Source: Escherichia coli (GTDB lineage Bacteria; Pseudomonadota; Gammaproteobacteria; Enterobacterales; Enterobacteriaceae). Taken from it: a stretch of DNA of 64,000 bases. Of this stretch, positions 4,126 through 45,174 are shown piece by piece (the stretch's first letter is position 1; the number at the start of each line of letters is the position of its first letter). The position numbers and the translations under genes were made by a program. The notes below the pieces were generated by a model. That model had not been told where the DNA came from. It was given only the letters and a program-made list of their open reading frames with translations, and made no database searches. The DNA lies in assembly GCF_002854065.1 (NCBI RefSeq), contig NZ_CP024147.1; one strand, 5' to 3'.

Positions 4126-5973
4126 ATGTTGCTTAATATGATGTGTGGTCGTCGGCTGTCGGCAATCAGTTTGTGCCTGGCCGTAACATTCGCTCCACTG
4201 TTCAATGCGCAGGCCGATGAGCCTGAAGTAATCCCTGGCGACAGCCCGGTGGCTGTCAGTGAACAGGGCGAGGCACTGCCGCAGGCGCAAGCCACGGCAA
4301 TAATGGCGGGGATCCAGCCATTGCCTGAAGGTGCGGCAGAAAAAGCCCGCACGCAAATCGAATCTCAATTACCCGCAGGTTACAAGCCGGTTTATCTTAA
4401 CCAGCTTCAACTGTTGTATGCCGCACGCGATATGCAACCCATGTGGGAAAACCGTGATGCTGTTAAAGCCTTCCAGCAACAGCTGGCAGAGGTGGCGATT
4501 GCTGGTTTCCAGCCGCAGTTTAATAAATGGGTAGAGTTACTGACCGATCCTGGTGTTAACGGGATGGCACGTGACGTGGTGCTCTCTGATGCGATGATGG
4601 GCTATCTCCATTTCATTGCAAATATTCCGGTCAAAGGCACTCGCTGGCTATATAGCAGTAAACCTTATGCGCTTGCAACGCCGCCGCTTTCGGTGATTAA
4701 CCAATGGCAGCTAGCGCTGGATAAAGGTCAATTGCCTACGTTTGTTGCAGGACTGGCACCGCAGCATCCGCAATATGCGGCGATGCATGAATCGTTACTA
4801 GCCTTACTCAGTGACACCAAACCGTGGCCCCAACTGACCGGCAAAGCAACGTTGCGCCCAGGGCAGTGGAGTAACGACGTACCGGCGTTGCGTGAAATAT
4901 TGCAACGCACAGGCATGTTGGACGGGGGGCCGAAAATTACTCTACCTGGCGATGACACGCCAACTGACGCGGTAGTCAGCCCATCCGCTGTTACTGTTGA
5001 AACAGCAGAAACTAAGCCGATGGACAAGCAAACGACGTCTCGTAGTAAACCTGCGCCTGCCGTTCGTGCCGCCTACGATAATGAACTGGTGGAAGCCGTT
5101 AAACGTTTTCAGGCATGGCAAGGATTGGGGGCAGATGGTGCTATTGGCCCGGCAACGCGGGACTGGTTAAACGTAACGCCCGCCCAGCGTGCTGGCGTGT
5201 TGGCACTCAACATCCAGCGATTGCGCTTGCTGCCAACAGAGCTTTCTACCGGGATCATGGTTAACATTCCGGCCTATTCGCTGGTCTACTATCAGAACGG
5301 CAATCAGGTGCTGGATTCGCGAGTCATTGTCGGTCGCCCCGATCGCAAAACGCCGATGATGAGCAGTGCCCTTAACAACGTAGTGGTAAACCCGCCGTGG
5401 AACGTACCATCAACTCTGGCACGCAAAGATATTCTGCCGAAAGTGCGCAACGATCCGGGATATCTCGAAAGCCATGGCTATACGGTGATGCGCGGCTGGA
5501 ACAGCAGAGAAGCGATTGACCCATGGCAGGTTGACTGGTCTACAATCACGGCCTCGAATTTACCGTTTCGCTTCCAGCAGGCTCCAGGCCCACGGAACTC
5601 GCTGGGGCGCTATAAATTCAATATGCCGAGTTCAGAGGCCATTTATTTGCATGACACGCCGAACCACAATCTGTTCAAGCGTGATACACGCGCATTGAGC
5701 TCAGGCTGTGTACGAGTGAATAAAGCTTCCGATCTGGCGAATATGCTGTTGCAGGATGCAGGCTGGAATGACAAACGTATTTCTGATGCGCTGAAGCAGG
5801 GTGATACACGTTACGTCAATATTCGGCAGTCGATTCCGGTGAATCTCTACTACCTGACGGCCTTTGTTGGTGCAGATGGTCGTACCCAGTATCGTACAGA
5901 TATTTACAATTATGATCTGCCTGCGCGATCCAGCTCGCAAATCGTATCGAAAGCGGAACAATTAATCAGGTAA
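4126..5973 (+). CDS. ldtD: L,D-transpeptidase LdtD (YcbB), 615 aa
   Basis: ATG start, N-terminal signal peptide, C-terminal YkuD-type L,D-transpeptidase region (HDTPN...SSGCVR motif). Confidence 0.9.
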
Positions 5974-8800: not shown

Positions 8801-9889
8801 TTAGAACTGGTAAACGATACCCACAGCAACGGTGTCGTCAGAACCTACGCCCAGTTTGTTGTCAGAATCGATCTGGTTGATGATGTAGTCAACATAGGTG
8901 GACATGTTTTTGTTGAAGTAGTAGGTTGCGCCCACTTCAAAGTAGTTCACCAGATCAACATCACCGATACCTTCTACGTCTTTCGCTTTAGATTTGGTGT
9001 AAGCGATGGACGGACGCAGACCGAAATCGAACTGGTATTGCGCAACTAACAGAACGTCTTGCGTTTTGTTGGCGAAGCCGCTGATGTTTGTAAATTTATT
9101 AGTGATCGGCGTAGCGTTACGGGTTTCACCGTAGTTCGCTGCCAGGTAGATGTTGTTCGCGTCATACTTCAGACCAGTAGCCCACTGTTCAGCTTTTTTA
9201 CCGTTGCCAAGAAGTTGAGCTTCTTGCAGGTTGGTACGGTCAGCTGCACCATAAGCACCAACGATACCAAAGCCTTCGTATTCGTAGCTGATAGAACCGC
9301 CAACACCGTCGCCGTTAGAGCGGCGTGCAGTGTCACGCTCGTTTTTACCCAGGTACTGAACAGCGAAGTTCAGGCCATCAACCAGACCAAAGAAGTTGGA
9401 GTTACGATAGGTAGCAACGCCGCCAACACGACCAACGAAGAAGTCATCGCTGTATGCAGTATCACCACCAAATTCTGGCAGCATATCGGTGTAACCCAGT
9501 GCATCATAAACCACACCGTAGTTACGGCCGTAATCGAAAGAACCAACGTCAGCGTATTTAAGACCCGCGAATGCCAGACGCGTTTTGTTACCAGTTTGAG
9601 CGTCAGCGCCTTCAGAGTTGTTACCCTGGAAGTTATATTCCCACTGACCATAACCGGTCAGATCGGAATTGATTTGAGTTTCCCCTTTAAAACCAAGACG
9701 GGCATAGGTCATGTCGCCATTGCCACCGTAACTGTTTTCACCGTTACCCTTGGAGAAATAATGCAGACCGACAGCTTTACCGTACAGATCTACTTTGTTG
9801 CCATCTTTGTTATAGATTTCTGCAGCGTTTGCAGTACCTGCTACTAACAGAGCAGGGACGATCACTGCCAGAATATTGCGCTTCATCAT
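8801..9889 (-). CDS. ompF: Outer membrane porin OmpF precursor, 362 aa
   Basis: [22 protein letters not shown] signal peptide, porin beta-barrel ending ...VGIVYQF. Confidence 0.96.
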
Positions 9890-43255: not shown

Positions 43256-44308
43256 TTAAGCCTGCGGCTGAGTTACAACGTCTTTGATGCCTTTAACTTC
43301 GATCTCTACGCGACGATCCGGAGCCAGGCAGTCGATCAATGCAGCACGCTGTTTCACGTTGTCACAGGTGTTGCCAGTAACCGGGTTGGATTCGCCCATA
43401 CCACGTGCGGAGATCTTGTCTGCCGGGATACCTTTAGAGATCAGGTAATCAACAACAGACTGAGCACGGCGCTCGGACAGACCCTGGTTGTAAGCGTCAG
43501 AACCGATGCGGTCGGTGTAACCCAGAACAACTACGGAACCGTCTTTCGGATCCAAGTTGCTCAGCTGGCTGTACAGCTGATCCAGAGCAGCCTGACCTTC
43601 CGGTTTCAGGGTAGCTTTGTTGAAGTTGAACAGAACGTCAGACTTCAGAGTGAAGTGCTTGGTCTGTACTTCCGGTGCTGGAGCTGGAGCCGGAGCAACT
43701 ACCGGAGCTGCTTCGCCCTGACCGAAACGGTAGGAAACACCCAGGCTCAGCAGGCCGTTGTCCGGACGAGTGCCGATGGTGTGTGCGTCACCGATGTTGT
43801 TGGTCCACTGGTATTCCAGACGGGTAGCGATTTCAGGAGTGATCGCGTACTCAACACCGCCAGCGAAGACCGGAGAAACGCCGGTGTCGTGGTCTTTAGT
43901 GGATACCCCACCAGGTACGTTAGACTTGGTGTCTGCACGCCATACCATACCACCCAGACGAGTGTAAACGTCCAGATCGTCAGTGATTGGGTAACCCAGT
44001 TTAGCGGTCAGCTGAACGCCCTGAGCTTTGTAAGCGCCGTTGATGTTGTCGCCTTTGTACGGCATACGACCTAACCAGTCGTAACCCATTTCAAAGCCAA
44101 CATACGGGTTAACCTGGTAACCACCAAAAGCACCAGCGCCCAGTTGGTTTTCATGGGTCGGGCCATTGTTGTCGATGAAACCAGTGTCATGGAACTGGGA
44201 CCAGCCCAGTTTAGCACCAGTGTACCAGGTGTTATCTTTCGGAGCGGCCTGCGCTACGGTAGCGAAACCAGCCAGTGCCACTGCAATCGCGATAGCTGTC
44301 TTTTTCAT
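43256..44308 (-). CDS. ompA: Outer membrane protein A precursor, 350 aa variant allele
   Basis: ATG at 44306-44308 gives [21 protein letters not shown]; Pro-Ala hinge [14 protein letters not shown]; OmpA-like C-terminal domain; track ORF extends 24 codons upstream. Confidence 0.96.
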
Positions 44309-44441
44309 TTTTTGCGCCTCGTTATCATCCAAAATACGCCATGAATATCTCCAACGAGATAACACGGTTAAATCCTTCACCGGGGGATCTGCTCAATATT
44401 AACTCTACCGATATCTTCGGCTTATGCCGAGCACCCCTGGC
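44309..44441 (-). promoter_or_regulatory. ompA long 5' untranslated leader with promoter immediately upstream
   Basis: Non-coding region upstream of ompA ATG; ~133-nt leader length is from recall. Confidence 0.5.
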
Positions 44442-44664
44442 GATGTAAAGTCTACAACGTAGTTGAAAACTTACAAGTATGAACTCCGTCAGGCATATGA
44501 AAAAAAAGTCTTGTATAAGGTATGTTTAATCTTTTTTGTCAGCGACAATTTACAGAAGAAAATCGCGGAAACCGCTTCAGACAAGCCTCCGCAAGGAAAA
44601 TTAGTCACGACTGAAAGCATTGGCTGGGCGACAAAAAAAGTTCCAGGATTAATCCTAAATTTAC

Positions 44665-45174
44665 TTAATGATACAAATTAGAGTGAATTTTTAGCCCGGA
44701 AAGTTGTCTCGTTGCGTGAGAGGATGCGCTTACCGGACGCATAATAAACCCCATCGCGTTACCTTCATTTGCCGCATCAACAAGTTCAGCATGCTCTTCT
44801 TCAGTCAAATCATCTGCCAACCAACCGATCACCACACTGTAATTGCCCGTGCGTAAAGCGCGAACCATTGACTCCACAGTGTGGCAAGGGGGGAGCTGGC
44901 TAATCTGCATTACTTTCGTTAAGGGTAGCCCAGATGCCTGAACCCATTCCCGACTCAGTTTTTGTTGCGGTGTTAACCAGAGTTGCCAGCGCGATTGCTG
45001 ACCGAGTTGCTGTAACAATGGCAACAGTAGAAGTTGCGTCATCATGGGCTGATCTTCGCGATAGACAACTTCACTGATAAGCCCGGCTGTAGTGTTTTCC
45101 GTAGAGACACGCGCAATTTTACTTGCTGCGGATGAGAACGACGAAGAACGATGTGCATAGCCTGAAGTGTACAT
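44665..45174 (-). CDS. sulA: SOS cell division inhibitor SulA, 169 aa
   Basis: ATG at 45172-45174 gives [25 protein letters not shown]... Confidence 0.93.

Follow-up and report, generated by a model that had tools for sequence, protein, structure and literature searches.

OmpA of Escherichia coli is known in several natural forms that can be told apart by their outer loops. The form most often used as a reference is the K-12-type allele (pattern I; P0A910; PDB 1BXW and 1QJP), which is defined by N25, SVE at mature positions 66-68 and the short loop 3 SNVYGKN. According to Liao et al. (2017; PMC5413513), the allele named ompA2 by Power et al. (2006) corresponds to patterns II and III, with P25, DNI, ANVPGGASFKD and either N or H at position 149 (N149 being pattern II). 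The ompA2 form has been found in Nissle 1917 and as the S. dysenteriae-type OmpA, and its loop set is that of PDB 9FZD. A further outer-loop pattern, with D25, DNI66-68, an 11-residue loop 3 at 108-114 and H149, was listed in Table 3A of the same article (Front Microbiol 8:708) for a single isolate out of 78, strain 249. Among those isolates D25 was present in 15% and DNI in 46%, while mature position 93 was a 50/50 polymorphism (I/V) and position 161 was L in 37% (Liao et al., 2017; PMC5413513).

The loops that distinguish these alleles are also sites of recognition. As described in one study (PMC12032242), phage resistance has been assigned to mature residues 25, 70, 110 and 154 of OmpA, E89 of loop 2 is named among the contacts, and eight natural ECOR variants placed in MG1655 delta-ompA alter the host range of Gp38 phages, with type-2 Gp38 phages infecting only those variants that have particular combinations of loop 2 and loop 3. 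In addition, G154 has been tied to recognition by the F-plasmid TraN-gamma (PMC10516633), and further phenotypes of OmpA alleles have been reported (PMC5413513, PMC9560509). As to the distribution of OmpA patterns, most of it has been accounted for by chromosomal history (Nielsen, 2020).

Here we describe the ompA gene found in a stretch of 64,000 nucleotides of E. coli DNA (contig NZ_CP024147.1), which is referred to below as the window. Its OmpA allele is an already known, natural and ordinary polymorphism, and what is added here is limited to a corrected polarity of the loop 3 length difference, a view of the divergent part of the gene as a cassette, and figures on its rarity. The reading that we prefer, with a probability of about 85%, is that the window carries a naturally circulating loop allele on a mosaic ompA, in which a rare published pattern is combined with a very rare Y18F substitution, and that the K-12 form is the derived one.

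An Intact Chromosomal ompA Gene

The gene is contained in an open reading frame at 43256-44380 (-), in which the ATG at 44308 is the start codon, and its product of 350 aa is 97% identical to the MG1655 reference of 346 aa (from NC_000913.3). Both domains of OmpA were recovered by Pfam, namely PF01389 (OmpA_membrane, 8-stranded beta-barrel; 268.9 bits against a cut-off of 21) at residues 23-199 and PF00691 (OmpA, peptidoglycan-binding; 85.5 bits against a cut-off of 27.2) at residues 226-321, and the barrel domain matched PDB 1BXW, 1QJP and 9FZD at E-values of about 1e-107 to 1e-117. The gene occupies the orthologous position matP-ompA-sulA and has its native signal peptide and 5' region. The Pro/Ala-rich linker and the C-terminal domain differ from K-12 by 7 synonymous changes and are identical in protein, in agreement with an earlier model-made reading of this DNA (the initial annotation), which had described the periplasmic domain as unchanged. 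Given the matP/sulA context, the two Pfam domains and the conserved upstream region (Table 1), ompA appears to be intact and presumably normally expressed; judged from its sequence, it is an ordinary chromosomal gene with K-12-like expression signals.

The closest genome, that of strain 100416, annotates this locus as ompA, with the protein WP_032280676.1, and over the 20 kb surrounding ompA both strain 100416 (human stool, Gambia) and strain CUWW06 (wastewater) match the window at 100% identity. A scan with Rfam and a scan for promoters and terminators revealed no other element in or opposite ompA. An antisense open reading frame of 139 aa (43655-44074) lies opposite the gene and was regarded as incidental, with nothing supporting it.

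Table 1. Features of the ompA locus, with positions in the window
Feature	Position	Strand	Basis or remark
ompA upstream region (promoter, 5' UTR)	44309..44668	(-)	358/360 nt identical to K-12
ompA coding sequence, 350 codons plus stop	43256..44308	(-)	Between matP and sulA as in K-12; ORF list, alignment, Pfam
Signal peptide, codons 1-21	44246..44308	(-)	Identical to K-12 in alignment
Loop 1 variant stretch, from codon 39 TTC (Y39F, mature Y18F) to codon 46 GAC (N46D, mature N25D)	44171..44194	(-)	Alignment
Divergent cassette, codons 87-139 (loop 2, strands 4-5, loop 3), about 160 bp	43892..44050	(-)	Sequence comparison
Loop 2 codons 87-89, GAC AAC ATC (DNI); K-12 AGC GTT GAA (SVE)	44042..44050	(-)	Alignment
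Codon 114 GTT (I114V, mature 93), barrel strand near the periplasmic end	43967..43969	(-)	Alignment
Loop 3 variant codons 129-139, 11 residues; K-12 SNVYGKN	43892..43924	(-)	Alignment
Four codons of loop 3 that K-12 is without, 134-137	43898..43909	(-)	Alignment
Private synonymous base, codon G134 GGG; GGC or GGT in every other allele examined	43907..43907	(-)	Codon table
Codon 186 CTG (M186L, mature 161), strand adjoining loop 4	43751..43753	(-)	Alignment
C-terminal OmpA-like (peptidoglycan-binding) domain, codons 226-321	43346..43633	(-)	PF00691; protein as in K-12

Differences from K-12 OmpA

Alignment with MG1655 OmpA yielded 13 differing columns, made up of 9 substitutions and the 4-codon length difference: Y39F, N46D, S87D, V88N, E89I, I114V, Y132P, the extra codons 134-137, N to D at 139, and M186L. 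The initial annotation had claimed a loop allele that marks the strain as non-K-12, and the alignment bears this out, with the differences located mainly in loops 1-3. Both members of each quoted pair of strings were reproduced, i.e., the 13-residue loop 1 string against K-12 SQYHDTGFINNNG, KGDNING against K-12 KGSVENG in loop 2, and the 16-residue loop 3 string against K-12 SNVYG----KNHDTGV, and the interval assigned to them, 43886-44197, correctly spans codons 38-141. The same annotation held the rest of the barrel to be unchanged and thereby missed I114V and M186L, both of which lie in barrel strands and are known polymorphic sites (PMC5413513). Loop 4, including G154, is the same as in K-12.

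The clustering of these differences in the loops is far beyond chance, as 11 of the 13 columns, all of them in surface loops 1-3, fall among the 67 loop residues of a total of 329 (P about 7e-7 by the hypergeometric distribution; the loop boundaries are approximate). At the nucleotide level, 29 of the 94 differences from K-12 found over 7 kb were concentrated in two 100-bp bins (43900-44099), against a density elsewhere of about 1 per 100 bp. Pairwise Nei-Gojobori counts between the window and K-12 ompA gave a pS of 0.20 in the loops versus 0.05 outside them; the loop pN/pS of 0.38, being below 1, is no formal signal of positive selection in this comparison. Together with the cassette structure described below, the loop divergence fits old recombining allelic classes, and not recent positive selection on point mutations. 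An AlphaFold2 model built from a 50-sequence alignment has eight strands and is of low confidence (mean pLDDT 55, pTM 0.42); it would roughly assign F39 to strand 1, at its outer end, V114 to strand 5 and L186 to strand 8.

Occurrence of the Allele among E. coli Genomes

The OmpA of the window displays all four elements of the outer-loop pattern described for strain 249. Exactly the same protein, RefSeq WP_032280676.1, is present on 183 contigs in public databases, and the sole difference between the ompA genes of the window and strain 100416 is the synonymous GGG at codon 134. A 45-mer covering loop 3, with GGC at codon 134, was detected in 23 of 5,426 complete E. coli genomes (about 0.4%). 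The native 45-mer of the window, with GGG at this codon, had no match in the same 5,426 genomes, because the private synonymous base breaks every 28-mer. The Y39F substitution, searched with a 51-mer centred on the F codon, was found in 2 of the 5,426, and an identity of at least 99% over ompA was observed in only 5 genomes in the complete-genome comparison. The same loop pattern with Y at position 39 is found in E. coli 042, FDAARGOS_943, PapM-32-1 and O157:H7 TR01.

The long gene itself is common. In 29 full-length entries sampled at regular rank intervals among the complete genomes, the long ompA (1,053 bp) occurred 12 times and the short, K-12-length form (1,041 bp) 17 times, or approximately 40% versus 60%, which agrees with the share of long ompA quoted in Liao et al. 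(2017; PMC5413513), namely a PCR figure of 43% and 41% of isolates.

The window and strain 100416 also share six ompA codons (39, 202, 210, 232, 252 and 324) that none of the 12 further E. coli alleles in the sample has. E. albertii is matched at three (39 TTC, 202 CCG and 210 CCA), and codons 252 and 324, which are rare TTG Leu codons, match no outgroup compared. These sites may be either retained ancestral states or small gene-conversion tracts.

Polarity of the Loop 3 Length Difference

Species-representative genomes were scanned with a degenerate pattern, which retrieved at least 120 ompA loci from Enterobacteriaceae; the loci listed included neither E. fergusonii nor the species representative of E. 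coli, and the outgroup sample is to that extent incomplete. Eleven outgroup genes were compared, comprising five from non-K-12 Escherichia (E. albertii, 'E. coli' SCPM-O-B-8794, E69, E1V33 and MOD1-EC7003, with flanks 88.7-96% identical to the window), one from Salmonella arizonae, three from Citrobacter, one from Intestinirhabdus and one from a Leclercia MAG. As the flanks of these genomes are overall 79-96% identical to those of the window, they count as real outgroups.

The four extra codons and L186 were present in all 11 outgroups, DNI in 10 (DNV in the remaining one), and P132 and D139 in 10 of the 11. The DNA of the extra codons was near-identical across them (GGC GYA TCC WYT), and positions 46 and 114 were polymorphic. 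Since all 11 outgroups carry the four extra codons together with DNI or, in one, DNV, the short loop 3 of K-12 is most likely the derived state, reached through the loss or replacement of 4 codons in the lineage of the K-12-type allele, and 10 of the 13 differing columns were most likely derived in K-12, not in the window strain. F at position 39 was probably derived in the window strain or is shared with E. albertii. The four codons had been reported in the initial annotation as an insertion in loop 3, a description that, going by the outgroup comparison, probably has the direction reversed; more generally, with K-12 as the standard of comparison the ancestral long loop 3 would be mistaken for an insertion.

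A Divergent Cassette Covering Loops 2 and 3

Most of the divergence of ompA is confined to the cassette delimited in Table 1, in which 22 of 147 shared nucleotides differ from K-12 (15%), as opposed to 10 of the 891 nucleotides outside it (1.1%). Every other sequence compared, those of other genera included, is 20-24 nt away from the K-12 block. The window block is only 3-10 nt away from those of the Escherichia and Citrobacter outgroups, with the exception of MOD1-EC7003, whose block differs from it by 22 nt and encodes an AHNNVTG-type loop 3. Among the at least 120 Enterobacteriaceae loci listed, none was a donor for the K-12-type block, which is about 15% diverged from every relative examined.

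Some strains pair cassette and backbone differently, which indicates recombination in ompA. In PapM-32-1, a K-12-like backbone (2 differences) is joined to a window-type cassette (1 difference), a composition that shows this gene, from its pattern of differences, to be a recombinant with exchange on both sides of the block. In SCPM-O-B-8794, the ompA at 4495-5544 (-) of NZ_JAATUR010000002.1 encodes an identical loop 3, with 1 of 45 nt different, and the flanks are 91.6% identical to the window, indicative of a divergent Escherichia lineage. Taking these two sequences as they stand, the loop 3 allele is common to both sides of a species-level boundary.

We propose that a near-invariant ompA backbone holds the cassette of loops 2 and 3, and that in E. 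coli this cassette exists as a few deeply diverged forms that have been shuffled between backbones by recombination. The cassette of the window, being close to the form in other Escherichia species, Salmonella and Citrobacter, would approximate the ancestral state, and the K-12 cassette with SVE and a short loop 3 would be the derived form. Y18F sits at the base of loop 1. It is at the loops that OmpA meets phage receptor-binding proteins, colicins and host defences, and the allele should keep the structural role of OmpA and at the same time offer a different docking surface. The selective cause of the allele, as well as any change in phage or colicin phenotype, is at this point putative. The wider proposition, that the cassette is an old, recombining, cross-species polymorphism in which the window form is approximately ancestral and the K-12 form is an outlier and a derived minority architecture, is one to which we would give even odds; if it is true, the account of OmpA as a phage receptor that was built on K-12 describes just such a derived architecture.

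Evolutionary Explanations of the Allele

Several other explanations can be set against a naturally circulating loop allele on a mosaic gene. The allele might be a neutral lineage marker that reflects chromosomal ancestry, its loops having drifted under tolerance and being of no adaptive or receptor significance. No part of OmpA is under less constraint than its loops, the loop pN/pS is below 1, the distribution of OmpA patterns has been put down mostly to chromosomal history (Nielsen, 2020), and the two genomes with the allele also match the flanking 20 kb at 100% identity, all of which make this explanation a possible one. We nevertheless regard it as rather doubtful, because the divergence is packed into a block of 160 bp (15%, against 1.1% elsewhere in ompA and about 1% in the flanks) and the same cassette is found on different backbones, as in PapM-32-1, and in a genome with flanks as distant as those of SCPM-O-B-8794; moreover, natural OmpA variants measurably alter phage host range (PMC12032242). 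The presence of the long form in 11 of 11 outgroups, with near-identical DNA in the extra codons, and the fact that the K-12 block lies equally far from all the other sequences (20-24 nt of 147), even in other genera, make it very improbable that a true insertion of 4 codons took place in the lineage of the window strain, starting from an ancestral K-12-like short loop 3, even if the gene is 12 nt longer than the K-12 reference and the 1,041-bp form makes up about 59% (17/29) of the full-length entries in the rank-based sample.

If part of ompA had recently been acquired from a different Escherichia species, such as an E. albertii-like donor, this would explain why the E. albertii type strain and the window have an identical loop 1 and why three of the six distinctive codons match this species, but such an import seems unlikely when the remainder of the gene is considered. 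Outside the cassette, fewer differences separate the window from K-12 (10/891) than from E. albertii (21/891), codons 37-60 differ at 4 of 72 nt from E. albertii and at 1 of 72 from other E. coli, the change from Y to F takes a single A-to-T change, and the TTG codons at 252 and 324 match none of the outgroups. A wholesale import from E. albertii was rejected, the ompA backbone being nearer to E. coli. Finally, the GGG at codon 134, found in the window alone among all alleles examined, could be suspected of being a sequencing or assembly artefact; since this base is synonymous and leaves the reading frame intact, and since an identical protein is encoded in independent assemblies (100416, CUWW06 and the 183 contigs), the chance that the allele arose in this way is negligible.

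Predicted Consequences for Receptor Function

The initial annotation had pointed to the OmpA loops as phage receptors, a role that is documented at the four mature residues named above (PMC12032242). The allele of the window changes residue 25 itself as well as residues adjoining 70 and 110, and replaces SVE, E89 included. As residue 25 is changed, SVE with E89 is replaced and loop 3 is remodelled beside residue 110, we predict a shift in phage recognition, whereby phages that need the K-12-type combination of loop 2 and loop 3 would be likely to recognise the allele less well, and phages of broad specificity would be likely to recognise it still. Colicins U and L depend on OmpA. Any effect of the window allele on phage, colicin or conjugation behaviour would be putative, by analogy with published variants. 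The allele is also a candidate for "variant 7" (T137 in loop 3) among the eight ECOR variants of PMC12032242.

OmpA loop alleles help to set the range of hosts open to OmpA-dependent phages and possibly sensitivity to some colicins and to neutrophil elastase. The allele described here is thus useful for predicting the phage susceptibility of the strain and, beyond strain typing, matters little. Where typing or PCR schemes have been designed from the two common alleles, this rare class, which makes up about 0.4% of complete genomes, will probably escape them. A published ompA2 PCR primer lies on ANVPGGA (as given by Liao et al., 2017; PMC5413513), and such a primer would probably miss the window allele.

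Other Features of the Window

Another surface protein encoded in the window, the porin and phage receptor OmpF (8804-9889, -), differs from its K-12 counterpart only by P226L and T269I in 362 aa. As ompF is nearly K-12-like, the divergence of surface proteins from K-12 is specific to ompA.

An IS2 element of 1,331 bp is located at 22588-23918 (+) and is absent from the genome of strain 100416, which is otherwise 99.95-99.98% identical. Its open reading frames of 136 aa and 301 aa matched the NCBIfam families 'IS2 repressor TnpA' (275.8 bits) and 'IS2 transposase TnpB' (727.6 bits), and its ends have imperfect terminal inverted repeats of 33 nt and an apparent 5-bp target duplication. The element divides the fimbrial usher gene elfC (ycbS) into open reading frames at 22123-22590 and 23882-26059. 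The zapC gene at about 30195-30737 (+) is intact and encodes 180 aa; in strain 100416 it is annotated as a pseudogene with an internal stop. The only hits in the window at the Rfam gathering level were a PyrD leader at 28943-29016 (+) and a tRNA at 55883-55967 (-), which is tRNA-Ser in the annotation of the closest genome.

Comparison with Known OmpA Forms

With K-12 OmpA, the protein of the window has in common the gene, the locus, the signal peptide, loop 4, the linker and the C-terminal domain, and alignment separates it from the K-12-type allele at all of the defining elements (N25, SVE66-68 and SNVYGKN). The ompA2 allele is similar to it in having 350 aa, DNI in loop 2 and the PGG.S.KD frame of loop 3. 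The two forms are nevertheless distinct, as the window has D25 and not P25, and a different 11-residue loop 3, with S108, V112 and T114 in place of A, A and F, combined with H149; V93 and L161 differ as well, and there are 8-9 nucleotide differences in the cassette. Recent structural entries for the OmpA barrel include PDB 9FZC (K-12-type, 173 aa) and 9FZD (P25/DNI/ANVPGGASFKD, 177 aa), which suggests that they are a solved pair of alleles, and the loop 3 of the window was in none of the PDB OmpA barrel structures matched.

Outside E. coli sensu stricto, the DNI loop 2, the long loop 3 and L186 are shared by E. albertii NBRC 107761, SCPM-O-B-8794, Salmonella arizonae and Citrobacter amalonaticus. 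SCPM-O-B-8794 has the same loop 3 as the window, as detailed above, and the E. albertii type strain has the same loop 1 (F and D). These four relatives, however, are other species with flanks of 79-92% identity, and the combination of loops is different in each. Within E. coli, all four of the outer-loop positions that define the pattern of strain 249 (Liao et al., 2017) are the same in the window, and V93 and L161 are also known from that collection; the one feature that sets the window apart is Y18F (Y39F in the precursor), which lies outside the 10 polymorphic locations listed there.
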